Source: Nitrososphaerota archaeon (GTDB lineage: Archaea; Thermoproteota; Nitrososphaeria; Nitrososphaerales; UBA57). Taken from it: a stretch of 32,000 nucleotides of DNA. Location: the NCBI GenBank assembly GCA_002713205.1, contig PAVW01000009.1, forward strand, positions 1 through 32,000. Reading direction: 5' to 3'. The position numbers were made by a program, and so were the translations under genes. How positions within the stretch are numbered: position 1 is the first letter of the stretch; the number at the start of each line of letters is the position of its first letter. The notes below the pieces were generated by a model. That model worked only from the letters and a program-made list of their open reading frames with translations. It made no database searches and was not told the origin of the DNA. Shown piece by piece: positions 1 through 19,056 of the stretch.

Positions 1-28
1 AAATAATATGAAATGACGGAATAGAATC

Positions 29-208
29 ATGTCTGACCAACTGGAAATTCCAAATTGCACATCTTGTAGCAGGCCTATTTTACCTGGTAGCCTTTCAGTG
101 AAATTTCTTTGCCCTGCTTGTAATGAAACAATTATTTGGAGATGTCCAAAATGTCGCACATTTACTAGAACTTATTCTTGTTCTGATTGTGGATTTCAAG
201 GTCCCTAA
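29..208 (+). CDS. Small Zn-ribbon protein (COG2888-like, translation-associated)
   Basis: ATG at 29 and TAA at 206-208 give 59 aa, which is below the ORF-track cutoff. My own translation is MSDQLEIPNCTSCSRPILPGSLSVKFLCPACNETIIWRCPKCRTFTRTYSCSDCGFQGP. It has four CxxC pairs (CTSC, CPAC, CPKC, CSDC). It lies directly 5' of aEF-1beta, the conserved archaeal neighbourhood for this family. Confidence 0.6.
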   Translation: MSDQLEIPNCTSCSRPILPGSLSVKFLCPACNETIIWRCPKCRTFTRTYSCSDCGFQGP

Positions 209-219
209 AGTGATGAAAT

Positions 220-501
220 TTGGGCTATGTCATTGCTCGATTAAAATTATTACCAAAAGAACCTGGTATTACTGGGGATAAATTACATGATGCTATTCAA
301 GCAAATCTTCCAAATGATATGTCAATTAGGCAAATGAAGGACGAACCAATTGCATTTGGTCTCTTTGCCATATTTGTTGATATTTATTTTGAAGAAAAAG
401 ATGGTGCTATGAACACTCTGGAATCTTCTATAGATAAAATCGATCAAATTAGTCAATTTGAAACTGTAGCTGTTAGTAAAGCATCTACAAAAATTGGTTA
501 A
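220..501 (+). CDS. ef1b: Translation elongation factor aEF-1 beta
   Basis: The 93 aa size and the N-terminus MGYVIARLKLLPKEP fit archaeal EF-1beta. TGA at 214-216 closes the frame upstream, so TTG at 220 is the only possible start. Confidence 0.8.
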   Translation: MGYVIARLKLLPKEPGITGDKLHDAIQANLPNDMSIRQMKDEPIAFGLFAIFVDIYFEEKDGAMNTLESSIDKIDQISQFETVAVSKASTKIG

Positions 502-1783
502 ATTGCCAACAGATTATGATGTCATAGTTGTGGGTGCAGGCCCTGCAGGATCTGCAGCTGCTTATAGCTTGGCTAAAACCGGTCATCATGTTCTAATGCT
601 TGAAAGAGGCAAGGAACCCGGTTCTAAAAATGTATATGGTGGCAGAATATACCCTTATTCTCTTTCAGAACTCATTCCAGAATTTCTTGACGATGTACCT
701 ATTCAAAGACATGTGTCAAAGGAAAGTATTATGTTTATGACTGAAAAGTCTAGTTTTCAAACATCTTTTTCTTCAAATAATCCAACCAATCATGGTTTCA
801 CTGCTTTTCGTTCTGAATTTGATAAATGGTTAGCTAATAAGGCGATTGAAGCTGGCGCTGAATTATTTACTGAAATAAAAGTTGATGATCTTATTATTGC
901 GGATAATGTTGTTTCAGGAATTAAAAGTGGTGATGATGAAATCACATCTAAACTTGTTATTGCAGCTGATGGTGCGACATCTATTCTAGCAAAACAGGCT
1001 GGACTTCGAAATGATTTTTCTCCTGATTCTTTTTCAGTTGGGATTAAAGAAGTTATTGAACTTCCTGAACATATTATTAATGATAGATTTGGTGTTCGGG
1101 ATAATAATGGCGCTGCTTTAGTTTGCGTTGGCTATCCTACAAAGTATGTGAGAGGCGGCGCATTCATTTATACTAATAAATCCTCGTTATCTTTAGGATT
1201 AGTAATAGAAGGTATTGATCTAGTATCTCATCAAATTCAAGTTGCATCACTTATTAACGATTTCAAAAATCATCCTGATATACTAAACCTAATTGATAAT
1301 GGCAATGTTATTGAGTATAGTGCTCATTTAGTTCCTAAAGCAGGTTATTCAATGTTACCAAAACTCTATAATAATGGTATTTTGGTTTGTGGTGATGCAG
1401 CAGGATTATTATTAAATAATGGTTATACCTTTCGTGGAGTAGATCTTGCTATTTCTTCAGGTATTGCTGCTGCTGAAACTTTTAATATAGCTAACAAAAA
1501 TAACAATTTCTCTAATTCTACCTTATCAATGTATGAAAATTTTCTTTTTAAAAGAAACGTATTGTCAGATCTCAAAAAATTTCAAAAAACTCCTAAATAT
1601 ATGAAAAATCCAAGATTATATTCAGAATACCCTAAATTGATTTGCAATATTTTTGAAAATTTATATAATATTGATGGAAATCAACAAAAATTAATTCGTG
1701 AAATTGTACGCCAATCTACTAAAGGAAATATATCTAGTTTACAATTGATACTTGATTTGATTCGTGGAGCTAACGCTCTTTAA
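494..1783 (+). CDS. fixC: FixC-type flavoprotein (ETF:quinone oxidoreductase / geranylgeranyl-reductase family)
   Basis: It has the N-terminal FAD fold DVIVVGAGPAGSAAA and an internal GDAAGLLLN motif, and is 429 aa. It sits next to etfBA. The TTG start overlaps the ef1b stop by 8 nt. Confidence 0.8.
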   Translation: MVKLPTDYDVIVVGAGPAGSAAAYSLAKTGHHVLMLERGKEPGSKNVYGGRIYPYSLSELIPEFLDDVPIQRHVSKESIMFMTEKSSFQTSFSSNNPTNHGFTAFRSEFDKWLANKAIEAGAELFTEIKVDDLIIADNVVSGIKSGDDEITSKLVIAADGATSILAKQAGLRNDFSPDSFSVGIKEVIELPEHIINDRFGVRDNNGAALVCVGYPTKYVRGGAFIYTNKSSLSLGLVIEGIDLVSHQIQVASLINDFKNHPDILNLIDNGNVIEYSAHLVPKAGYSMLPKLYNNGILVCGDAAGLLLNNGYTFRGVDLAISSGIAAAETFNIANKNNNFSNSTLSMYENFLFKRNVLSDLKKFQKTPKYMKNPRLYSEYPKLICNIFENLYNIDGNQQKLIREIVRQSTKGNISSLQLILDLIRGANAL

Positions 1784-2787
1784 TTTTTAACTTTTAATTT
1801 TTTAGTTAACTCAGGAACTATTTCAAATAAGTCTCCCACTATTCCATAATCTGAAAATTTGAATATTGGGGCATTTTTATCTTTATTTATAGCTACAATA
1901 CATTTTGAATTTATCATTCCAACTTGATGTTGAACTGCTCCTGATATTCCACAAGCTATGTACAAATTTGGTGATACAATTTTACCCGTTTGACCTACTT
2001 GTTCTGAATGAGGTCGCCATCCTGCATCAACTACTGCCCTTGAAGCTCCTACTGCTGCATTTAGGGTATTTGCTAGTTCTTCGATAATGTTGAAATTTTT
2101 TGGATCTTTCATTCCTCTTCCACCAGATACTATTATTGAAGCTTCTGATACATCCAATGTTTTCCTTTCTGGAAAAATAGTTTCCTTAAGAACTGGTAGG
2201 TGTTGTATGACATTCTCTGAAACGTTGCTGGATATGGATTTAATTTTTGGTTCATTCACTGATTGTTTTTTTATATTAAAAGAATTAATTTTAAGTGAAA
2301 TTACTTTCGGATTATTAGTTTTTAATATTACTGTTTCAATAATTTTTCCTGCATAAATTGGACGTTTTACTTCTAATCCTTCTGGCTTAACTGAAATAGA
2401 TATGCAGTCGGTTGCAATGCTATATTCATTATTTACTGCTATTCTTGGCGCTAAATCTTTTCCCACAGATGTTCCTGAAAATATGATTATTTCAGGCTTA
2501 ATAATTTCAATGACTGATGATATGGCCATTGTATATATCTCAGGAGAATATCCTGATAACAATGTTATTCTTCCATCTTTATTTGTATTTGTTGAACATA
2601 TAAACAGAGAATTTATCCCATATTCTTTTAATTTTTCAACATTATTGTTATTTATTTCTCCTATCACTATTGCATTGTTATCTTGCTTTTTTTCCGTTGC
2701 AATTTTCTTAGCTTCGGTTAGTACTTCTAATGAACTATTTGTTACCTCGTCGTTTTTTAATTCTAATACTGATAATATTCCTGTCAA
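1780..2787 (-). CDS. etfA: Electron transfer flavoprotein alpha subunit
   Basis: It is 335 aa with the C-terminal ETF-alpha FAD-binding signature PNLYIACGISGAVQHQVGM. The TTG start lies 8 nt after the etfB stop. Confidence 0.9.
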   Translation of the reverse strand: MTGILSVLELKNDEVTNSSLEVLTEAKKIATEKKQDNNAIVIGEINNNNVEKLKEYGINSLFICSTNTNKDGRITLLSGYSPEIYTMAISSVIEIIKPEIIIFSGTSVGKDLAPRIAVNNEYSIATDCISISVKPEGLEVKRPIYAGKIIETVILKTNNPKVISLKINSFNIKKQSVNEPKIKSISSNVSENVIQHLPVLKETIFPERKTLDVSEASIIVSGGRGMKDPKNFNIIEELANTLNAAVGASRAVVDAGWRPHSEQVGQTGKIVSPNLYIACGISGAVQHQVGMINSKCIVAINKDKNAPIFKFSDYGIVGDLFEIVPELTKKLKVKN

Positions 2788-2795
2788 AATTTCAC

Positions 2796-3551
2796 CTAAA
2801 TTATTTTTCTCTCTTCTCGTAAAATTCTAACTAATTCGGATACTGCCTCTTTGCCTTCTCCAATTATTTTTCCTTCTTTTCTCACTGGCGGATATTCTAA
2901 TTTAATTAGTTCTATATCATCGTTTATTTGTTCAACTATATCTATCGATTCTATTGTCTTTTTTTTTGCAGCCATTAAATTTCTTAATGAAGGATATCGT
3001 AATTCATTTTTACCTTTTTCTTGTGTAATAATTATGGGTAATTTGCTTTCAAATATTTGAATTGCACCCTCGATTTCTCTATGAGCAGTAATCGTATTAT
3101 TATTTATTTTAAATTCAGTACAATTCGAAATACATGGTATTTGATTAATTTCTCCAATCATAATGCCAATTTGATTATTATCTTGGTCTACTGATTTTTT
3201 ACCAAATAATATTAAATCATACCTTTCTTTTTTTATTTCATTAGCCAGTATTTTTGCAACCACAAAAGAGTTTTTTATATCTTCATTAGTTTTTAGATGA
3301 ATTGCATTATCTGCCCCAATTGCTATAATTTTTGTTAATGATTGTTTTACTCTTTCAGGTCCAAGTGACATAACAGTGATTGTTGTATTTGGATCATTTT
3401 CTTTTAATCTTAAAGCTTCTTCTATTGCATATTCGTCATATGGGTTGATCTCATATTTTATACTAGTTTGTTCGATTGTTTTTTTATTTTCGGAAATTTT
3501 TATTTTAGTTGCCGTATCGGGTACTTGTTTAATACAGATTAGTATCTTCAA
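2796..3551 (-). CDS. etfB: Electron transfer flavoprotein beta subunit
   Basis: It is 251 aa. The canonical ETF-beta N-terminus MKILICIKQVPD begins exactly on a TTG codon (plus-strand caa at 3549-3551). Confidence 0.9.
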   Translation of the reverse strand: MKILICIKQVPDTATKIKISENKKTIEQTSIKYEINPYDEYAIEEALRLKENDPNTTITVMSLGPERVKQSLTKIIAIGADNAIHLKTNEDIKNSFVVAKILANEIKKERYDLILFGKKSVDQDNNQIGIMIGEINQIPCISNCTEFKINNNTITAHREIEGAIQIFESKLPIIITQEKGKNELRYPSLRNLMAAKKKTIESIDIVEQINDDIELIKLEYPPVRKEGKIIGEGKEAVSELVRILREERKII

Positions 3552-9754: not shown

Positions 9755-10333
9755 TTACTTGAAAATATTAGTTTGTTTTACTGCTAAATATATTATATAT
9801 CCAATTATTATGATCAATAATTGTGATAGAAATGCTAACGAAGTTATTGTAATCATTGATTCACCTGTTGCATTATACCCTACAAAAGCTATCCATAACG
9901 ATGTAATTATTACAAATAATAATGGCCCAATTAAATTCAACGACGATTTAAATTGACGAATAAAAAATAATCCTAAAAAGGTGAAAACAGGAGAATAAAG
10001 ATCAATTGATCCGATGTGAGATGTTGTTGCAATGACTAGATGACCTAATGTTATTCCTAAAATGCCTGCCAAACCGAAAAATACTATCAATGGTGAAAGT
10101 ACAAAACCAGGAATAATTGTTAATAATATTTGAATTGATGAATTTGAGATTATTTGTCCTGATGGATCTAACATGTTTAAAATATTTGCTGGAAATATAT
10201 CTAGTATAGACATTTCAGGTAATCCTAAACTACCTGCTGCTGTTATACCAGCTGTGATTACAAATAATCCAAATCTTGCTGTAGTGAATTTTCCTTGCAA
10301 TGGATTTTGTCGAGAGTTTGTATTTGATGACAT
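9755..10333 (-). CDS. Membrane protein, unknown function, translationally coupled to the coxIII-like gene
   Basis: I trimmed the ORF-track entry 9755..10399. ATG at 10333-10331 overlaps the coxIII-like TAA in a TAATG junction, giving 192 aa (MSSNTNSRQNPLQ...) with about 5 hydrophobic helices. Confidence 0.55.
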   Translation of the reverse strand: MSSNTNSRQNPLQGKFTTARFGLFVITAGITAAGSLGLPEMSILDIFPANILNMLDPSGQIISNSSIQILLTIIPGFVLSPLIVFFGLAGILGITLGHLVIATTSHIGSIDLYSPVFTFLGLFFIRQFKSSLNLIGPLLFVIITSLWIAFVGYNATGESMITITSLAFLSQLLIIIIGYIIYLAVKQTNIFK

Positions 10334-11232
10334 TATGCTGCTAGCACCTGGAAATATGATAGACCATCTTGCCATAGAAACGCAAATAGGAATAACCATA
10401 CAATATGCACAAAGTGCCAGTAAGTTCCTGCCGCTTCTAGAAAACCGTGATTCTCTTTATCGAATTGACCTCTAAACGCTCTTATCGTTACAACAATATT
10501 TGCCAAAACTCCTGCTATTACATGACATCCATGTATTCCTGTTAACAGGAAAAATGATGCACCAAATAATCCACTTTGTACAGTTAATTCTCCAGAAGAT
10601 AATAAATGCGGCCATTCATAACCCATTTGTATTACTGCAAAACCAGCTCCTAGTATAACTGCCCCTAAGAAACCAAATTTAACTGCAGTATTGTTACCTT
10701 TTTTAACACCTGCTGTTGACCATTCAATCATTATACTGCTCAATATTAGAAGTCCTGTTTGAATACTTGGTATTAATACATCAAGATGAGGTGTTCCTGC
10801 TGGTGGCCATGATAGAGCTTGTGAACGCAAATAGAAATATGCTACAAATGCACCGCCAAAGAATGCAATCTCTGACAATAAAAATAGCGCAGTAGGAAAA
10901 CCAACATCGCCAATTTCATGAAATTTGCCAGGCGTTCCACCTGCTTTTACCATTGCCTCTGCATCTTTTGTTATTTTTGGCCAACGAGGAATTTCACCAC
11001 GCAGAAAAATTAAGATTAATAAAATAAATACTAATACCATGGCAGCGCCAATTGTTAGTGAAAAACCCTTTAACATGAAAATTATACCTGTAGCTACTAA
11101 AATACCTGCGCCCAAACCAATTACAGCAGGCATGTATGAATGAATTTCATCAGGATTAACATGATGTTCGAATTCATTCTCATGTTCTTTTTCTGACATT
11201 TTCTGTTTCAAAAAAAACATCAACATGGCCAT
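10333..11232 (-). CDS. Heme-copper oxidase subunit III-like protein with N-terminal extension
   Basis: The C-terminal motifs TGIHGCHVIAGV and AAGTYWHFVHIVWLFLF match the subunit III pattern (YWHFVDVVWLFL). The start is uncertain; an alternative in-frame ATG gives MSEKEHENEF. Confidence 0.75.
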   Translation of the reverse strand: MAMLMFFLKQKMSEKEHENEFEHHVNPDEIHSYMPAVIGLGAGILVATGIIFMLKGFSLTIGAAMVLVFILLILIFLRGEIPRWPKITKDAEAMVKAGGTPGKFHEIGDVGFPTALFLLSEIAFFGGAFVAYFYLRSQALSWPPAGTPHLDVLIPSIQTGLLILSSIMIEWSTAGVKKGNNTAVKFGFLGAVILGAGFAVIQMGYEWPHLLSSGELTVQSGLFGASFFLLTGIHGCHVIAGVLANIVVTIRAFRGQFDKENHGFLEAAGTYWHFVHIVWLFLFAFLWQDGLSYFQVLAA

Positions 11233-11316
11233 TTATTAACTTTAAGTATTTATTGACAACTGGTATTAAATTCAGTAAATATACTTATACTCTTGATTTG
11301 GTAGTTTTATATTAGA

Positions 11317-11619
11317 ATGTCTACCTCTGGATATATTTCTGATTTGGACTCATTTAAAAAACGGGAAATATCTGATAAAGTAACAAAGTACCGGAACTTT
11401 TCAATAATTATTGCAGTTTTTGTTCATATATTTGCATTCATTACAGGGATTATTCTTTTAGTTGTTTTTTCGTACCCATTTATGACTTTAATTATTTTTC
11501 ATGGAACTATGCAGCTCTTGTCATACATTCATATTTATTTTGGTCCAAAAATTTATGAAAAACGTTTGAGACGTAAGGTATTGAAACCTGATTTAATTAT
11601 GCTTAATCGTAATGTGTAG
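11317..11619 (+). CDS. Small two-TM membrane protein, unknown function
   Basis: This 100 aa ORF is divergent from the coxIII-like gene and lies upstream of the oxidase genes. It has two hydrophobic helices. Confidence 0.45.
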   Translation: MSTSGYISDLDSFKKREISDKVTKYRNFSIIIAVFVHIFAFITGIILLVVFSYPFMTLIIFHGTMQLLSYIHIYFGPKIYEKRLRRKVLKPDLIMLNRNV

Positions 11620-11687
11620 TCGAATCACATGTTCTCATAATTGGTAATGGTCAGTAATCCTAATATAATAAGCTGTGGAACTAAATC

Positions 11688-11954
11688 ATGACTAAAATGG
11701 GCTTACTTACTACTTTTGACAGATTAGTCTGGGCATTTACGATCATTTTCACTTTTATCGTTCTATATATAATGGGAGGCGGTGTTGGTATATCTTGGTA
11801 TCCTGATCAAATTTCTCCACGAGCAATTGAAATAAAACAATATTTTGATGTTGTCTATTTAGCAGGAACGTTTGTTTCTGCATTATTTATTGGCACTTTC
11901 TTTTTTATCTTATTTAGATTTTGGGATAGAACCCAGCCATCAGGAATAGAGTGA
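11688..11954 (+). CDS. Small two-TM membrane protein, candidate accessory oxidase subunit
   Basis: It is 88 aa and ends 4 nt before the coxII start. It has two hydrophobic helices. The role is inferred from position only. Confidence 0.5.
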   Translation: MTKMGLLTTFDRLVWAFTIIFTFIVLYIMGGGVGISWYPDQISPRAIEIKQYFDVVYLAGTFVSALFIGTFFFILFRFWDRTQPSGIE

Positions 11955-11958
11955 TAAT

Positions 11959-12387
11959 ATGAATACATTGGAAAAATTAGAATGGGCAACAATAGTAGGT
12001 GCTGCAATATTGCTATTTGGATTATCTTTTATGGCTATACCTCTTCTAGAGGAAATTGATAATGTCCAATATTATGGTCAAGATCCAGACTATACTGTTA
12101 AAGTAACTTCCTTTCAATGGGGCTGGGTATTCACTTATGCGGATGGTCACGAATCAGGAGAATTGATAGTAGGTGTTGGAGATATAGTTAGATTAGAAAT
12201 GGAAAGTGAAGACGTTATACATAGTTTTTATGTGAGAGAACTGGGATTTAAGGCTGATATAATTCCAGGAAAAACTCGAATTCATTTAATAAAAGCTGAA
12301 GTACCAGGGGAATACTGGATACAATGTGCAGAATTTTGTGGCGCTTATCATGGCGGTATGAGAACTAGATTGGTAGTGGAGGCTTAA
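11959..12387 (+). CDS. coxB: Heme-copper oxidase subunit II (CuA cupredoxin domain, single N-terminal TM)
   Basis: It carries the CuA ligand pattern HSFYV ... CAEFCGAYHGGM. It is 142 aa with one N-terminal helix. Confidence 0.9.
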   Translation: MNTLEKLEWATIVGAAILLFGLSFMAIPLLEEIDNVQYYGQDPDYTVKVTSFQWGWVFTYADGHESGELIVGVGDIVRLEMESEDVIHSFYVRELGFKADIIPGKTRIHLIKAEVPGEYWIQCAEFCGAYHGGMRTRLVVEA

Positions 12388-12390
12388 TAA

Positions 12391-13923
12391 ATGGAAATCG
12401 AAGAAGTAAAAAAAGAACAGGCCATTACTAAAGAACATGCGCCTTTCTATTCTAGCTGGAAAAGTGTTCTCTTTACAACTCATCATACTGACATAGGTAT
12501 TCTATATCTAACTTTTGCTTTCTTCTTTTTCTTCTTAGGTGGTGCATCTTCTCTGATAGTAAGATATGCTCTAACAAGTGAGGGTTCAGTTAGTCCTGAA
12601 GCATATGCTGGTGCGTTTACTTTACATGGTGTCAGCATGCTCTTCTTATTTATCATTCCTGCTTGGGCTGGATTTGGTAACTGGTTAGTTCCAAAATATA
12701 TTGGAGCTAAAGATATGTATTTTCCTAAACTTAATGCTCTTGGTTTCTGGTTATTGCCTCCTGCAGGTTTATTAATTTACCTTGGCATGCCTAATGTTGG
12801 ATGGACTATGTATGCTCCACTCTCTGTATATTCAGCTGGTTGGGGTATGGATCTGACAATCTTAGGACTTCATTTGATCGGGACTTCTTCTATTATAGGT
12901 GCCATTAATTTTATTGTAACAATTATGAAAATGAAAGCGCCTGGTGTGACATATAGAAACATGCCATTAATGGTTTGGACTCAGTTTACAACTGCTTTCT
13001 TACAAGCATTAGCAACTCCTGTTCTTGCTATAGTACTCACATTATTATTATTAGATAGAAATCTAGGAACTGGTTTTTTCCGTCCAGAATTAGGCGGAGA
13101 TCCTCTTCTATGGCAACATTTATTCTGGTTCTATTCTCATCCTGCTGTCTATATATTTGTTCTTCCAGGTATGGGTCTTGTTTCTCAAATACTGCCAAGT
13201 ATGTCAAGGCAAAAGATCTTTGGTTATAGTTCTATTGCTATATCAACCGCACTTATAGGATTCCTTGGGTTTGGTGTTTGGGCACATCATATGTGGATTA
13301 CCGGAATATCAGTGAGTGCTAGAATACCTTTTATGTTTATGACTATGGCAATAGCAGTTCCTTCCGGTGTTAAAATTTTTAATTGGATTGCTACCATGTA
13401 TGGTGGCAAATTAAAATTTAGTACTCCGATGCTTTTTTGTCTCAGTTTTATTCTCAGTTTTATCTTTCAAGGAGTTTCAGGTGTTTTCTTAGCAAATATA
13501 CCTCTTGACTATCAACTTCATGATACATATTTCGTTGTAAGTCATCTTCACTATGTATTATTTGGCGCATCTGCTCAAGCTGCATTTGCAGGAATCTATT
13601 ATTATTTTCCATATATGACTGGCCGAAAGTATAATGAAACTTTAGGAATGGCCCATTTCTTGTTAACTTCTGCGGGACTTTATACATTATTCACTTCTAT
13701 GTTATTCTTAGGTCTTCAAGGAATGCCAAGAAGAACTTATACATATCTTCCAGAATTTTTCACATGGAACGTTGCGGCTACCTTTGGAGCAGTGTTGATA
13801 GCTGTTGGTGCACTAGTATTTGGATATAATATATTGTCAAGTTGGTATAGAGGTCCTCCAGTTGCCAATAAAGAAGATCCTTGGAATCTTTCAAAATATG
13901 GTCTAAGAGAATGGCCAGAATAG
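12391..13923 (+). CDS. coxA: Heme-copper oxidase subunit I, A2-type
   Basis: It is 510 aa with FGNWLVP, WFYSHPAVYIFVLPGMG, WAHHMWITG and SHLHYV. YSHPAV replaces the A1-type GHPEV. Confidence 0.95.
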   Translation: MEIEEVKKEQAITKEHAPFYSSWKSVLFTTHHTDIGILYLTFAFFFFFLGGASSLIVRYALTSEGSVSPEAYAGAFTLHGVSMLFLFIIPAWAGFGNWLVPKYIGAKDMYFPKLNALGFWLLPPAGLLIYLGMPNVGWTMYAPLSVYSAGWGMDLTILGLHLIGTSSIIGAINFIVTIMKMKAPGVTYRNMPLMVWTQFTTAFLQALATPVLAIVLTLLLLDRNLGTGFFRPELGGDPLLWQHLFWFYSHPAVYIFVLPGMGLVSQILPSMSRQKIFGYSSIAISTALIGFLGFGVWAHHMWITGISVSARIPFMFMTMAIAVPSGVKIFNWIATMYGGKLKFSTPMLFCLSFILSFIFQGVSGVFLANIPLDYQLHDTYFVVSHLHYVLFGASAQAAFAGIYYYFPYMTGRKYNETLGMAHFLLTSAGLYTLFTSMLFLGLQGMPRRTYTYLPEFFTWNVAATFGAVLIAVGALVFGYNILSSWYRGPPVANKEDPWNLSKYGLREWPE

Positions 13924-13932
13924 TATTGTATT

Positions 13933-14373
13933 ATGAATGCTTTTCAAATATTGACAGTACTTTCTTCAATTGGTGTGTATTTTCTTATTGTATTAGGTGG
14001 AATAACTACTCAAACCGGTTCAGGAATGGCATGTCCTGATTGGCCATTGTGTTTCGGTGAATTATTACCAAATCTTACTACGACTGTATTGATTGAAATG
14101 AGCCATAGATATATGGCCATGATTGTAGGTCTGTTAATCACTTCTACTTTTATTTTAGCTGTTAGAAATTATAGAAATTCAAAAATCCTCTTGTTTTCTT
14201 CTGCAATGTCTTTTCTTCTAGTTGGAATACAAGGATACATTGGTATGTTGACAGTTACTAGTATCCTTGATCCTGCAATAGTTACATTGCACTTGGCTTT
14301 ATCTACTGCATTATTTGGGTTTTCATTAATAACTGCAATTCTAGCTTTGAAAACTACATATAATGTTTCATAG
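13933..14373 (+). CDS. ctaA: Heme A synthase, compact four-helix archaeal variant
   Basis: It is 146 aa with the CPDWPLCFG cysteine pair and the MSHRYMA histidine motif typical of CtaA/Cox15. Its size matches the compact variant described for Aeropyrum pernix. Confidence 0.75.
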   Translation: MNAFQILTVLSSIGVYFLIVLGGITTQTGSGMACPDWPLCFGELLPNLTTTVLIEMSHRYMAMIVGLLITSTFILAVRNYRNSKILLFSSAMSFLLVGIQGYIGMLTVTSILDPAIVTLHLALSTALFGFSLITAILALKTTYNVS

Positions 14374-14378
14374 ATATA

Positions 14379-15050
14379 ATGAAATCTATTTTGAATATCT
14401 TCGACACTTATTCCTTGCGAGATGGCATATTAAAAATTATTTTTGCAAACATTCTAGTTCTACTTTTACTTACTCCAACTCTCGAACAATTTGAGACGAG
14501 AAGTTTATTTTATCATATGATGATAGAACATTTTCTTTTCATTTTTTCTGGTTACATTTTCATTTCTGGGTTTGATTCTTTAATTGTATCATTTAAACAC
14601 TTCAATCTACAATATAGCAAAAAAATTATAAAATATTATTCTCGCTTTCTAGCTCTAAATAATCGTTTTAATCCATTTGGAATTGTATCAACTGCATTAT
14701 TTTTAATTACAATATTTTATTGGCATGTACCATCTAATTTTGATATAGCCACTACAAATGCAACTTTTCATATATTGATGCATTTATCTCTGATTATTTC
14801 TGGCACATTGATATTTTGCAGTTTTAAAATGATATCAAATACTCAATCAATCTTTCTGATTCTTTCTATCGATAAAATTCTGGGAATATTAGGATTTTTC
14901 CTTGCAGGGGGCGATTCAATAATTTATAATGCATATTTGCTTTCTGATCATATAACTAGTGGATTTTGGATGATTATTATGATGATGGGAATTGATGCAA
15001 TTTGTATTTCATTTTTAATTTTGGCGTACTTTAGATTGCCCCATAAATGA
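14379..15050 (+). CDS. CtaG-like (caa3-type) oxidase assembly membrane protein
   Basis: It is 223 aa and polytopic. YHMMIEHFLFIFSG and YWHVPSNFDIATTNATFHILMHLSLIISG resemble the Caa3_CtaG family His/Met motifs. It lies between ctaA and ctaB. Confidence 0.55.
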   Translation: MKSILNIFDTYSLRDGILKIIFANILVLLLLTPTLEQFETRSLFYHMMIEHFLFIFSGYIFISGFDSLIVSFKHFNLQYSKKIIKYYSRFLALNNRFNPFGIVSTALFLITIFYWHVPSNFDIATTNATFHILMHLSLIISGTLIFCSFKMISNTQSIFLILSIDKILGILGFFLAGGDSIIYNAYLLSDHITSGFWMIIMMMGIDAICISFLILAYFRLPHK

Positions 15051-15089
15051 TGATTACATTTAAAAGGAGTTAATATATGTAACTGAATA

Positions 15090-15287
15090 ATGATGAATAT
15101 ATTACATTTGTTCTATACATTTATTGGATTGATATCGAATTCAGTTGAAAATGAGGTTCATTATGACGATAAATATAAACCTGTTAAAAAACTCATATTA
15201 TCTATTGTAATTATTACTTTTCTAGTTGGATTATCCTATGTTCTTATACAGACATTCGTAATTTCTGCTGCTGATGCCCCTGAATAA
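15090..15287 (+). CDS. Small single-TM protein in the oxidase/heme cluster
   Basis: This 65 aa ORF has one hydrophobic helix (LILSIVIITFLVGLSYVLIQTFVI). Support comes from position only. Confidence 0.35.
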   Translation: MMNILHLFYTFIGLISNSVENEVHYDDKYKPVKKLILSIVIITFLVGLSYVLIQTFVISAADAPE

Positions 15288-15340
15288 ATATTGATTTTAT
15301 AATAATTAGGCCAAATTTTATATTCAATAACTATATATTT

Positions 15341-16273
15341 TTGAACATTATGTCTTTTGATATTCCATCTAAATCTGGCATTAGAACTAGATTATTTCCA
15401 TATTATCAAATTTCTAAACCGTCTATAATTTTTCTACTTGATTTTGTAGCTATCTCTACATTATTAATTGCATATTTGGATACTAATTATACCACAAATC
15501 CTCTTACATTCAGCGTAATTATGGGATTATTTCTTGCAGGAACGTTTTCTTCTGCTGGTTCAGCAGCACTGAATTGTTATTTTGATCGTGATATTGATGC
15601 TAAAATGGAAAGGACAAAAAATCGTGTTACTGCAACTGGTCAACTTTCACCTTCAAATACTCTAAATTTTGGAATTATTATGATTATTCTATCTGTAATT
15701 ATTTCATCTATATTTCTTAATTTATTAACTACAGGAATGATCTTGTTAGGTTCATTTTTCTATATCTTTGTTTATACTATATGGCTTAAGAGAAAGACTA
15801 CTTGGAATATTGTTATTGGAGGCTTTGCAGGTAGTGCCGCTGCATTTGCAGGATGGACTGCAATAACTGGACAATTAGAAATTATTGCAATTCTAATGGG
15901 ACTTTTAGTTTTCATATGGACTCCTTCACATTTTTGGGCTTTAGCAGTATTGAAAGATGACGATTATACAGAAGCTGGAATTCCGATGCTTCCTGTTGTT
16001 GTTGGTAAAGTTAAAGCTGTGCGTTATACTGTAATCAACACACTTTTATTAATTCCATTCTCATTAGTTTTTATTTTATTTGATTATGGTTATGTATACC
16101 TTATAATTTCTGTTATTCTTGGAATGCTGTTACTATATAGTAATATAAAATTACTTCAAAATCCCCATGATAAATCTATAGCTCTCAAAGCATTCAAATA
16201 TTCTAGTCCATATCTTGCGATAATCTTTGTTGCTTTGATATTGGATCTTTTGTTTAGGTTTCCTATTTTTTAG
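15341..16273 (+). CDS. ctaB: Protoheme IX farnesyltransferase (heme O synthase)
   Basis: It has the UbiA-family Asp-rich motif NCYFDRDIDAKMERTKNR and is polytopic. The start is TTG at 15341 or ATG at 15350. Confidence 0.9.
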   Translation: MNIMSFDIPSKSGIRTRLFPYYQISKPSIIFLLDFVAISTLLIAYLDTNYTTNPLTFSVIMGLFLAGTFSSAGSAALNCYFDRDIDAKMERTKNRVTATGQLSPSNTLNFGIIMIILSVIISSIFLNLLTTGMILLGSFFYIFVYTIWLKRKTTWNIVIGGFAGSAAAFAGWTAITGQLEIIAILMGLLVFIWTPSHFWALAVLKDDDYTEAGIPMLPVVVGKVKAVRYTVINTLLLIPFSLVFILFDYGYVYLIISVILGMLLLYSNIKLLQNPHDKSIALKAFKYSSPYLAIIFVALILDLLFRFPIF

Positions 16274-17072: not shown

Positions 17073-17384
17073 TTACATTCTTTGTTCTATATCATTTATG
17101 ATTTTTGCTAATTTAAAATCAAAATTACTTATACCATTTACATCATGAGTTGTGAGTTCTATTTTTACTTTATTATATATATTAAACCATTCTGGATGAT
17201 GATTCATTTTTTCGACTTCCATTGCTATTCTAGTCATAAATGTAAAAGCATCTTCAAAATCACGAAATTCAAAAGTTTTAGTTAATTTATTTTTATTTAT
17301 TGTCCAGCCTTTTACTTTAATTAACTCGTTTTTTATCTCATTTTCACTTAATTTATTATAATTTTCTTCCATGTTATTTGTCAT
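17073..17384 (-). CDS. Pterin-4-alpha-carbinolamine dehydratase (PCD/DCoH)
   Basis: It is 103 aa with the diagnostic [11 protein letters not shown] motif and TTHD. Confidence 0.85.
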
Positions 17385-17435
17385 TAAATATGTTTTAATT
17401 GATTATCTTATTAAGTTCAACTAAAACGATAGTTA

Positions 17436-17449
17436 TTTATTAAATATTA
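17436..17449 (+). promoter_or_regulatory. Candidate TATA box/BRE for the tRNA gene
   Basis: TTTATTAAATATTA is centred about 30 nt upstream of tRNA position 1. This is weak evidence in a roughly 70% AT background. Confidence 0.25.
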
Positions 17450-17483
17450 TTGATAGTTAAATTCAGTCCCGCGACCCGCGGTA

Positions 17484-17506
17484 TGATATTTTATGATATC
17501 CCGTAG
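17484..17506 (+). other. tRNA intron 1 (23 nt, position 9/10)
   Basis: BHB geometry:
- Central helix: G17478-G17481 pairs with C17501-U17504 (one G-U pair).
- 5' bulge: UAU 17482-17484.
- 3' bulge: AGG 17505-17507.
- Inner hairpin: GAUAU/AUAUC.
- Cleavage after the second bulge nucleotide on both strands joins UA to GCUC. Confidence 0.8.
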
Positions 17507-17520
17507 GCTCAGCTTGGTAG

Positions 17521-17534
17521 AAATGTTTGCCAAA
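17521..17534 (+). other. tRNA intron 2 (14 nt, position 22/23, D-arm)
   Basis: BHB geometry:
- Central helix: U17515-U17518 pairs with G17529-A17532 (one G-U pair).
- Bulges: AGA 17519-17521 and AAA 17533-17535.
- The inner helix is only 2 bp.
- Splicing restores the D-stem 3' strand GAGC. Confidence 0.7.
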
Positions 17535-17549
17535 AGCTTCCGGCTGTAG

Positions 17550-17592
17550 TGGTAGGCCTTGGCTTGCCTGAACAGCCTGCCAAGCCACAGGA
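17550..17592 (+). other. tRNA intron 3 (43 nt, canonical position 37/38)
   Basis: Textbook hBHBh' geometry:
- Central helix: C32-U35 (17544-17547) pairs with 17587-17590.
- Bulges: AGU 17548-17550 and GAA 17591-17593.
- Distal helices: GG/CC plus CUUGGC/GCCAAG, closing a 15-nt loop. Confidence 0.9.
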
Positions 17593-17608
17593 ACCGGACT
17601 GTCGTCGG

Positions 17609-17630
17609 TGAGTTATATTAACTCGATGAA
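17609..17630 (+). other. tRNA intron 4 (22 nt, position 53/54, T-arm)
   Basis: BHB geometry:
- Central helix: C17603-C17606 pairs with G17625-G17628 (one G-U pair).
- Bulges: GGU 17607-17609 and AAU 17629-17631.
- Inner hairpin: GAGUU/AACUC with a 5-nt loop. Confidence 0.8.
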
Positions 17631-17636
17631 TTCAAA

Positions 17637-17658
17637 TTGGTTCAAAAAACCATGAATG
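17637..17658 (+). other. tRNA intron 5 (22 nt, position 59/60, T-loop)
   Basis: BHB geometry:
- Central helix: U17631-A17634 pairs with U17653-A17656.
- Bulges: AAU 17635-17637 and UGU 17657-17659.
- Inner hairpin: UGGUU/AACCA with a 5-nt loop.
- Splicing yields the T-loop UUCAAAU. Confidence 0.8.
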
Positions 17659-17754
17659 TCCGACCCGCGGGACCATATTTATTTAAAAATTTAATTAAAA
17701 AATAAAAATATATATGTGTGTGACGGAAACAATCTATAATTAACGGTATAAAAA

Positions 17755-19056
17755 ATGGCAGCTAAACCACATCTTAATTTAATTGTTGCAGGTCATGTAG
17801 ATCAGGGTAAATCTACTATAATTGGTCATCTTTTGGTAGAGCTTAAAGTAATTGATGAACGAACTATTCAGAAATTTGCAGAAGAATCTGAAAAAACTGG
17901 TAAAGGTGATACTTTCAAATACGCTTGGGTTATGGATAATCTCAAAGATGAGCGAGAACGAGGAGTTACAATTGATTTAGCTTTTCAGAGATTCGAATCA
18001 AAAAAATATGATTTTACTTTAATTGATGCTCCTGGACACAGAGATTTTATTAAAAATATGATTACAGGTGCATCTGAAGCTGATTGTGCTATTCTTGTAG
18101 TTTCTGCTAAACCAGGTGAAACTGAAATTGCTATTGGTGTTGGTGGACAGTCAAGAGAACATTGCTTTTTATTAAAAACTCTTGGCGTTAAACAAATGAT
18201 AGTTGCTCTTAATAAAATGGATGATCCTCAAGTTAAATATTCCGAAGAAAGATTTAATGAAGTTAAATCTCAGGTATCTGATTTACTAAAACAAGTTGGT
18301 TTTTCTCCTGATAAAACTCCGATATTACCAGTTTCTGGTTGGAAGGGAGATAACTTAATTGCTAAAGGTAATTTAACTTGGAGCAAAGACCCAACAATTT
18401 ATGAAGCCCTTGATTCTTTTGAAATTGAAGCTCCTCCTATTGATAAACCTTTACGTTTACCTTTACAGGATGTATATTCTATTACTGGTGTAGGAACTGT
18501 TCCCGTTGGACGTGTAGAAACTGGAATGTTTAAAGTTGGCGACACAATTTCCATTAATCCTGGCAATCATTCTGCTGAAGTTAAATCTATAGAAACTCAT
18601 CACACTCCGATTCAAGAAGCAAAGGCAGGAGACAATATTGGTTTTAATTTACGAGGTATTGATAAAGGTACAATTAGACGAGGAGATGTAATTGGTTCTA
18701 AAGATAATCCCCCTACAGTAGTTAAGGAGATAACTGCACAAATAATAGTTGTTCATCATCCTACTGCAATAGCCCCTGGTTATACTCCTGTAATACATGC
18801 CCATACTGCACAAGCTGCTGCTACAATTACAGAGCTTATTTCTAAATTGGATCCACGATCAGGCGGTGTTCTAGAAGAAAAACCAAAATCTTTGAAAACA
18901 GGTGATGCTGCAATTGTAAAAATTCAACCATTACGTCCTTTATGTCTTGAAACATTCAAAGAATTTCCTGAATTAGGACGATTTGCTCTTCGGGATATGG
19001 GTACGACTATTGCTGCAGGCGTTGTTAAAGAAATTAATGCCGAATGGACTGACTAA
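17755..19056 (+). CDS. tuf: Translation elongation factor aEF-1 alpha
   Basis: It has GHVDQGKST (G1), DAPGHRDF (G3) and NKMD (G4), is 433 aa, and has an archaeal/eukaryal-type sequence throughout. Confidence 0.97.
   Translation: MAAKPHLNLIVAGHVDQGKSTIIGHLLVELKVIDERTIQKFAEESEKTGKGDTFKYAWVMDNLKDERERGVTIDLAFQRFESKKYDFTLIDAPGHRDFIKNMITGASEADCAILVVSAKPGETEIAIGVGGQSREHCFLLKTLGVKQMIVALNKMDDPQVKYSEERFNEVKSQVSDLLKQVGFSPDKTPILPVSGWKGDNLIAKGNLTWSKDPTIYEALDSFEIEAPPIDKPLRLPLQDVYSITGVGTVPVGRVETGMFKVGDTISINPGNHSAEVKSIETHHTPIQEAKAGDNIGFNLRGIDKGTIRRGDVIGSKDNPPTVVKEITAQIIVVHHPTAIAPGYTPVIHAHTAQAAATITELISKLDPRSGGVLEEKPKSLKTGDAAIVKIQPLRPLCLETFKEFPELGRFALRDMGTTIAAGVVKEINAEWTD

Follow-up and report, generated by a model that had tools for sequence, protein, structure and literature searches.

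A 32,000-nucleotide (nt) stretch of contig PAVW01000009.1 from a Nitrososphaerota archaeon (hereafter the window) very probably carries a functional tRNA-Tyr(GUA) gene that is interrupted by five introns and belongs to a marine lineage of the Nitrososphaerota (Thaumarchaeota). The gene spans positions 17475 to 17675 of the + strand, and rereading of the sequence returned the letters given in the first-pass annotation, which had proposed that removal of five segments leaves a 77-nt cloverleaf. The proposed coordinates were exact. Six exons of 9, 14, 15, 16, 6, and 17 nt add up to 77 nt and five introns of 23, 14, 43, 22, and 22 nt to 124 nt, which together account for all 201 nt, as that annotation had also calculated. 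Its central claim, that a single tRNA-Tyr(GUA) gene contains five introns of the bulge-helix-bulge (BHB) type, is supported by the splice-site geometry, by the conservation of the exons, by covariation, and by the recurrence of five introns in 27 of 45 loci.

The spliced 77-mer, CCCGCGGTAGCTCAGCTTGGTAGAGCTTCCGGCTGTAGACCGGACTGTCGTCGGTTCAAATCCGACCCGCGGGACCA, was recognized by ARAGORN as tRNA-Tyr(gta) with all four stems perfect. It displays the anticodon GUA, C1-G72, A73, G37, and a 5-nt variable loop (class I), and the universal U8, A14, G18G19, U33, and U54U55C56 are all present. C1-G72, A73, and the anticodon GUA are the archaeal tRNA-Tyr identity elements. All six exons follow one another in order on the + strand, in a span of 201 nt, and the gene is thus neither split nor permuted. 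ARAGORN found no tRNA in the unspliced window. A search of the window with Rfam returned no tRNA at the gathering threshold, and at an E-value of ≤10 the region from 17350 to 17800 gave chance matches only. From the sequence we infer that the gene is transcribed and that its five introns are spliced out; the resulting tRNA-Tyr would then be aminoacylated.

The junctions were analyzed in a register in which the four exon nucleotides before the last two of an exon pair with the four intron nucleotides before the last two of the intron. This is the register of the published canonical BHB description, in which cleavage follows the second nucleotide of each of two 3-nt bulges. At all five junctions the central helix was fully paired (4/4) and both cuts fell in the canonical register; the central helix includes one G-U pair in three of the introns. 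The probability of obtaining a 4/4 helix was determined for each junction by shuffling the intron (Table 1). The product of these values, i.e., the joint chance of five such helices, is approximately 1e-8, and it is far lower if inner helices are demanded as well.

The first-pass annotation had described the same exact geometry for every intron. The 4-bp central helix and the cut register are indeed common to all five, but a strict BHB was found only at 37/38. A strict hBHBh' motif is flanked by outer and inner helices of ≥2 bp each, and in the unspliced gene this is the only one, the anticodon stem being its outer helix. The 59/60 motif becomes strict only after removal of the 53/54 intron, its outer helix then being the T stem. 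At 22/23, the outer helix is offset and 3 to 4 bp long, AGC(T)/(A)GCT, and the motif is essentially a bulge-helix-loop (BHL). The relaxed HBh' and BHL classes have already been described for noncanonical introns, and the 9/10, 22/23, and 53/54 junctions fit them.

Several observations weigh against five BHB-type introns. Introns 1 (9/10) and 4 (53/54) lack an outer helix in any splicing state, and the inner helix of intron 2 is nearly absent (2 bp). The fold that contains all BHB motifs has a predicted energy of -66.0 kcal/mol, compared with a predicted minimum of -80.3 kcal/mol, and thus lies 14 kcal/mol above the minimum free energy (MFE) fold. The ensemble probabilities of the central helices of introns 3, 4, and 5 are low (0.01, 0.19, and 0.29, respectively); that of intron 1 is 0.94 in the full precursor. 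The unconstrained MFE fold shows motifs 1 and 2, together with a helix formed by the 5' leader, and not motifs 3 to 5. Lastly, the splice sites of the related loci described below were registered by rewarding the central helix, so that central helices counted over all loci are biased in favor of the model; no inner helix entered into this registration. As the all-BHB fold lies above the MFE, thermodynamics alone does not prove the motifs, and it is covariation that does.

We therefore turn to the relatives of the gene. Eight syntenic loci with the gene order dehydratase-tRNA-EF-1alpha were aligned. Variable columns numbered 0 of 77 in the exons versus 35 of 124 in the introns (Fisher p = 9e-9). 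Exon conservation in homologous loci had been set as a test by the first-pass annotation, and this result bears it out. In the orthologues, intron 2 ranges from 13 to 19 nt and keeps its central helix in all five distinct sequences, and 98% of the cells are paired in intron 4. Synteny with EF-1alpha identified orthologues down to approximately 72 to 81% identity of that protein. It failed for the relatives tried at 70 to 73% identity, in which the tRNA gene is not adjacent to that of EF-1alpha.

A pattern scan using one genome per species yielded 13 tRNA-Tyr loci of Nitrososphaerota, and a scan of metagenomes added 23 more. In total, 45 loci including the window were parsed by a spliced alignment in which the central helix only was rewarded. 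Five introns were present in 27 of them, which fall into two layouts, one with an intron at 22/23 and the other with one at 30/31 but otherwise alike. The layout of the window (9/10, 22/23, 37/38, 53/54, and 59/60) was found in 11 loci, and that with 9/10, 30/31, 37/38, 53/54, and 59/60 in 16 (L025, which belongs to UBA141, L031, L032, L035, L037, L039, L040, L042 to L045, L047, L048, L050, L051, and L053). Four introns occur at 22/23, 37/38, 53/54, and 59/60 in 13 loci and at 9/10, 37/38, 53/54, and 59/60 in one, and the remaining four loci have three introns. An additional intron position, 15/16, was observed in L015. A pattern search of the metagenome collection for a six-intron gene with both the 22/23 and the 30/31 introns gave 0 matches.

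The 45 loci yield seven distinct spliced products, all of which ARAGORN identified as tRNA-Tyr(gta). The sequence of exon 5, TTCAAA, is invariant among these loci except for one A-to-T change in L052. This locus has the layout of the window and the same synteny of the tRNA and EF-1alpha genes, but its five introns (22, 19, 44, 29, and 27 nt) all differ from those of the window in length and sequence, and its EF-1alpha is only 72% identical. The observation that the layout is shared in spite of this divergence indicates that it is old. Judged from these sequences, the five-intron gene is no one-off and has been conserved in a broad group of Nitrososphaerota.

Covariation was assessed on cassettes comprising the central helix and the first four inner pairs of the 9/10, 53/54, and 59/60 introns, in 13 distinct rows. 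Standard pairs occupied 95.5% of the cells, compared with 30 to 41% when the 3' partner was slid by 1 to 3 columns. Changes on both sides were found in 11 of the 24 pairs. The covariation score was 0.393, compared with 0.205 ± 0.017 in shuffles, none of which (0 of 500) reached 0.393. The inner helices were 90 to 100% paired, and their covarying pairs amounted to four of four at 53/54, four of four at 59/60, and two of four at 9/10. Changes in the T stem of the exons are matched in intron 4 (CGTC/GACG, CGCT/GGCG, and CGCC/GGCG). The covariation of BHB motifs across relatives, which the first-pass annotation had asked to see, is thus present.

The 37/38 intron has a conserved architecture in all 45 loci, with a covarying hairpin right after the 5' splice site. 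The sequence of its 3' motif, CAGCCTRYCAAGC, has been conserved in every lineage. Within this motif, CAGCC is complementary to exon nucleotides G30 to G34 and CCAAGC to the D-loop sequence GCTTGG. The internal ACAGCC of this intron prevails over the ACAG of the splice site in the predicted ensemble.

A gene so heavily interrupted might be functional but redundant, with a second, less interrupted tRNA-Tyr gene doing the decoding and the five-intron copy serving a regulatory role or being on its way out. Archaeal genomes occasionally have duplicate tRNA genes. However, a genome scan in which 0 to 30 nt were allowed at 53/54 and at 59/60 gave one hit in each of 13 thaumarchaeal genomes, parsing showed three or more introns in every hit, and the pattern scan found no intron-free tRNA-Tyr with the same mature sequence in these 13 related genomes. 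In addition, the total invariance of the exons over deep divergence implies strong purifying selection, and tRNA-Tyr has been described as single-copy in the archaeon Thermofilum pendens. We consider redundancy unlikely. As no intron-free copy with this mature sequence was found in the 13 genomes, the five-intron gene may be the only tRNA-Tyr(GUA) gene of the lineage.

The gene could also be genuine but parsed differently in the T arm, with a 32-nt intron at 51/52 and a 12-nt intron at 59/60, or with one of the insertions removed without EndA, the splicing endonuclease. The alternative T-arm parse arises because intron 5 contains a copy of mature positions 52 to 59, and in a spliced alignment without a structural term it scored equally well, also with five introns. 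Nevertheless, it pairs only 2/4 in the central helix and lacks an inner helix; the other clades have no such copy and fit introns at 53/54 and 59/60 only, and covariation is seen in the helices of those two introns. The 51/52 and 59/60 parse was rejected, being devoid of a BHB motif and confined to the window clade, and this alternative as a whole appears very unlikely. The copy itself, GGTTCAAA, is exact and lies at 17639 to 17646, within intron 5 of the window clade.

A decaying tRNA-Tyr pseudogene with accumulated insertions and fortuitous BHB motifs would agree with the failure of ARAGORN and Rfam to find a tRNA in the unspliced DNA and with a predicted MFE fold that lacks the full set of five motifs, but it is strongly disfavored by the absence of relaxed constraint (0 of 77 exon columns variable, while introns and flanks diverge, and a T stem that covaries across lineages), by the compensatory changes in the junction helices, by the persistence of the layout across lineages with EF-1alpha only ~72% identical, by a promoter-like box at a fixed distance, and by the probability of ~1e-8 for fortuitous geometry.

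Table 1. Elements of the tRNA-Tyr(GUA) locus in the window. The P value is the probability of a fully paired (4/4) central helix upon shuffling of the intron.
Feature	Coordinates	Strand	Length or tRNA positions	Central helix	Inner helix	P (4/4)	Remarks
TATA-like box	17433..17440	+					TTATTTAT; preceded by purine-rich AAACGATAG; putative archaeal promoter
5' leader	17466..17474	+					GTCCCGCG(A); adjoins exon 1; near-copy of exon 1
Exon 1	17475..17483	+	positions 1-9				CCCGCGGTA; invariant in 8 syntenic loci
Intron 1	17484..17506	+	23 nt, 9/10	GCGG/CCGT	6 bp, GATATT/GATATC	0.032	relaxed HBh'
Exon 2	17507..17520	+	positions 10-22				
Intron 2	17521..17534	+	14 nt, 22/23	TGGT/GCCA	2 bp	0.070	BHL-like; central helix closed by a short loop
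Exon 3	17535..17549	+	positions 23-37				holds the anticodon GTA
Intron 3	17550..17592	+	43 nt, 37/38	CTGT/ACAG	3 bp	0.039	canonical position; strict hBHBh'
Exon 4	17593..17608	+	positions 38-53				
Intron 4	17609..17630	+	22 nt, 53/54	CGTC/GATG	6 bp, GAGTTA/TAACTC	0.0064	
Exon 5	17631..17636	+	positions 54-59				6-nt micro-exon TTCAAA
Intron 5	17637..17658	+	22 nt, 59/60	TTCA/TGAA	5 bp, TGGTT/AACCA	0.018	
Exon 6	17659..17675	+	positions 60-76				holds A73 and the encoded CCA
T-rich tract	17676..17696	+					TATTTATTTAAAAATTTAATT; putative archaeal terminator, read from the sequence

The flanks of the gene contain putative expression signals (Table 1). In unrelated loci, a block (A/C)GATAGTTATTTAT, or a close variant of it, precedes the leader or the tRNA 5' end at a constant spacing of ~25 nt, and the TTATTTAT box of the window is a candidate promoter. 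At the other end, transcription would terminate in the T-rich tract.

The short 5' leader is complementary to the 3' end of the tRNA (17666 to 17673, tRNA positions 67 to 75), with which it forms an 8-bp helix in the MFE fold. Partition function calculations gave the leader helix a pairing probability of ~0.97 in every splicing state, compared with ~0 for the acceptor stem. The sequence (G)GTCCCGCG is present in 42 of the 42 loci with a 9/10 intron or a relic of it, which comprise, in addition to the window, L001 to L008, L016 to L018, L020 to L025, and L030 to L053; in the other three it does not occur as a separate leader element. As these loci are phylogenetically related, the raw count overstates the evidence from the co-occurrence of leader and 9/10 intron. 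Nucleotides 4 to 7, which the 9/10 motif requires, would otherwise be held in the acceptor stem, and a plausible role of the leader is therefore that of an anti-acceptor that also tethers the 9-nt exon 1. A search by hand for an additional BHB motif at the boundary between the leader and the tRNA 5' end, where EndA would cut in place of RNase P, revealed no consistent geometry.

These features suggest the following pathway. Transcription would start from the TATA-type promoter ~25 nt upstream of the leader and produce a precursor with five introns, each presenting EndA with a 4-bp central helix and splice-site bulges. The leader would pair with the 3' acceptor strand, which would free nucleotides 4 to 7 for the motif of intron 1, and probably tethers exon 1. 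EndA would cut after the second nucleotide of each bulge, at ten sites, and an RtcB-type ligase would join the exons. After splicing, RNase P would take off the leader; the CCA is gene-encoded.

Splicing is predicted to be at least partly ordered, with intron 4 leaving before intron 5, because exon 5, a mere 6 nt, would be released if both of its flanking introns were cut at once. Removal of intron 4 raised the predicted probability of the intron 5 inner helix from 0.35 to 0.87 and created its outer helix, the T stem. Conversely, when intron 5 was removed first, the helix probabilities of intron 4 fell. The partition function thus favors removal of 4 before 5. As only the 37/38 motif is strict, the pathway would require a broad-specificity (alpha-beta)2 EndA. 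Such an enzyme, which cuts relaxed motifs, has been reported in Thaumarchaeota, and a broad-specificity EndA in this lineage, which the first-pass annotation had proposed, would agree with that report.

The 9/10 intron appears to have been bypassed in a sister marine clade. In 13 four-intron marine loci (upstream of the tRNA 5' end of L008, at 2660 to 2725, and of L016, L017, L018, L022, L023, L024, L030, L033, L036, L038, L041, and L046), the 5' region reads, from 5' to 3', CCCGCGGTA, an intron-1-like sequence, G, and a second CCCGCGGTA that continues into GCTC. Relative to the window, the 10-nt insertion corresponds to mature positions 1 to 10, and includes the spliced junction between exons 1 and 2, now standing where the 3' splice site used to be. 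The former exon 1 and its intron survive as a leader element. The upstream pseudo-exon has diverged, yet it remains paired with the relic intron, and their central helix covaries (GCGG/CCGC, GTGG/CCAC, and ACGG/CCGT). The EF-1alpha of L052 is 72% and 71% identical to those of the two marine clades, which share 81% identity with each other. L052 is thus an outgroup to both clades, and since it has an intact 9/10 intron, the insertion is derived.

The insertion is explained most simply by an RNA-mediated (cDNA) origin, although these sequences leave it unproven; such a footprint would be expected if a cDNA made from spliced tRNA had recombined with the gene. A requirement for the leader in 9/10 splicing, to expose nucleotides 4 to 7 and to hold exon 1, would explain why it is present in 42 loci and absent in 3. 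Taken jointly, that requirement of the leader as anti-acceptor and tether and a cDNA-mediated bypass of the 9/10 intron in the sister clade form a tentative proposal that we regard as possible but doubtful. If it were true, the insertion would directly demonstrate that a tRNA intron was lost by an RNA-mediated route in an archaeon, the five-intron gene would represent a coevolved folding and splicing system, and its relatives would preserve a mechanism of intron loss.

The tRNA gene lies in a GC-rich island of an otherwise AT-rich sequence. The first-pass annotation had called this island unique in the window, correctly so: the stretch from 17385 to 17754, where GC peaks at 0.63, is the sole intergenic one with a 60-nt segment of at least 55% GC, whereas the other intergenic stretches peak at ≤0.45 and the whole window has 30.9% GC. 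The EF-1alpha gene follows at 17755 to 19056, with a sugar-type ABC transporter directly after it. Further neighbors encode pterin-4a-carbinolamine dehydratase, heme O synthase, cytochrome oxidase subunits, ETF, methylmalonyl-CoA mutase with MeaB, and an ammonium transporter. This is an aerobic gene context (window positions 9755 to 16273 and 494 to 3551), with a cytochrome oxidase cluster of COX3, COX2, COX1, CtaA, CtaG, and heme O synthase, and with ETF alpha and beta accompanied by ETF-QO. The 32,000 nt contain no amo genes, and no match to the EndA, RtcB, or RNase P families was found in the 30 open reading frames of the window that were scanned, five smaller ones being left out.

The EF-1alpha of the window is identical to that of a genome bin named "Thaumarchaeota archaeon." Its relatives cluster at 97, 95, 94, and 81% identity, followed by named Nitrososphaerales and Nitrosocaldaceae at approximately 70 to 73%. 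The contigs with an EF-1alpha of the window type come from marine metagenomes.

With these results, the largest number of introns known in a single tRNA gene rises from three to five, one exon being only 6 nt long, and both the number of introns and their conservation would surprise a specialist. The carriers are mesophilic Nitrososphaerota from many marine and other metagenomes, not hyperthermophilic Thermoproteales. The relaxed motifs, the ordered removal, and the micro-exon define the least that EndA and the ligase have to cope with. There is also a practical consequence. ARAGORN missed the tRNA-Tyr gene in all 27 related loci on which it was run (from L005 to L053, with 3 to 5 introns each), as it did in the window, where Rfam missed it too, so that tRNA-Tyr may be reported as missing in annotations. 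Statements on tRNA complements and genome completeness are affected if this essential tRNA is overlooked. The 45 loci form a natural series with three, four, or five introns at seven positions. It includes two alternatives for the fifth intron and one intron that was bypassed, so that models of tRNA intron gain and loss can be tested directly.

The first-pass annotation had given a maximum of three introns per archaeal tRNA gene, in agreement with open-access reviews and with the tRNAscan-SE 2.0 paper. Table S7 of the latter lists 16 three-intron genes, all from Thermoproteales, among 10,372 tRNA genes of 217 genomes, and at most two introns per tRNA gene in 11 genomes of Thaumarchaeota. A full-text search of open-access papers and preprints returned no report of tRNA genes with four or five introns. 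The closest counterparts are the multi-intron tRNA genes of Thermoproteales (Pyrobaculum, Thermofilum, and Caldivirga), in which neighboring introns may also lie so close that the next motif forms only after one has been excised. Their maximum, however, is three introns rather than five. Unlike them, the gene of the window comes from a mesophilic, AT-rich marine thaumarchaeon and has a 6-nt exon, and its layout has been stable over deep divergence, in contrast with the recently expanded introns of Thermoproteales. The noncanonical introns reported for Thaumarchaeota in the tRNAscan-SE 2.0 paper share the phylum, the relaxed kind of motif, and presumably the enzyme, but do not exceed two per gene in the 11 genomes.

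Other tRNA genes resemble this one at the level of individual junctions. The permuted tRNA-Tyr(GUA) gene of Thermofilum pendens, which encodes the same isoacceptor, has a BHB junction exactly at 59/60 in the T loop, plus a canonical intron, and permuted tRNA genes of the red alga Cyanidioschyzon merolae likewise have a junction at 59/60; these genes are circularly permuted, whereas the exons described here are collinear. In the split and tri-split tRNAs of Nanoarchaeum equitans, Staphylothermus, and Caldivirga maquilingensis, short pieces are also joined through BHB-like junctions, and the split tRNA-Lys genes of Nanoarchaeum and Staphylothermus share the 30/31 junction with the sister five-intron layout. 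There, separate loci are joined in trans, in contrast with the single cis transcript of the gene described here. In the nuclear tRNA genes of C. merolae, as many as three BHB-type introns interrupt the D arm, position 37/38, and the T loop, and the order of intron removal, shown experimentally, follows motif stability. These genes differ in belonging to a eukaryote, in their maximum of three introns, and in having neither a micro-exon nor a leader decoy. The chemistry and the motif are thus already known and no new mechanism is demonstrated here; what is new is the unprecedented intron load, the micro-exon, the different phylum and lifestyle, and the deep conservation.

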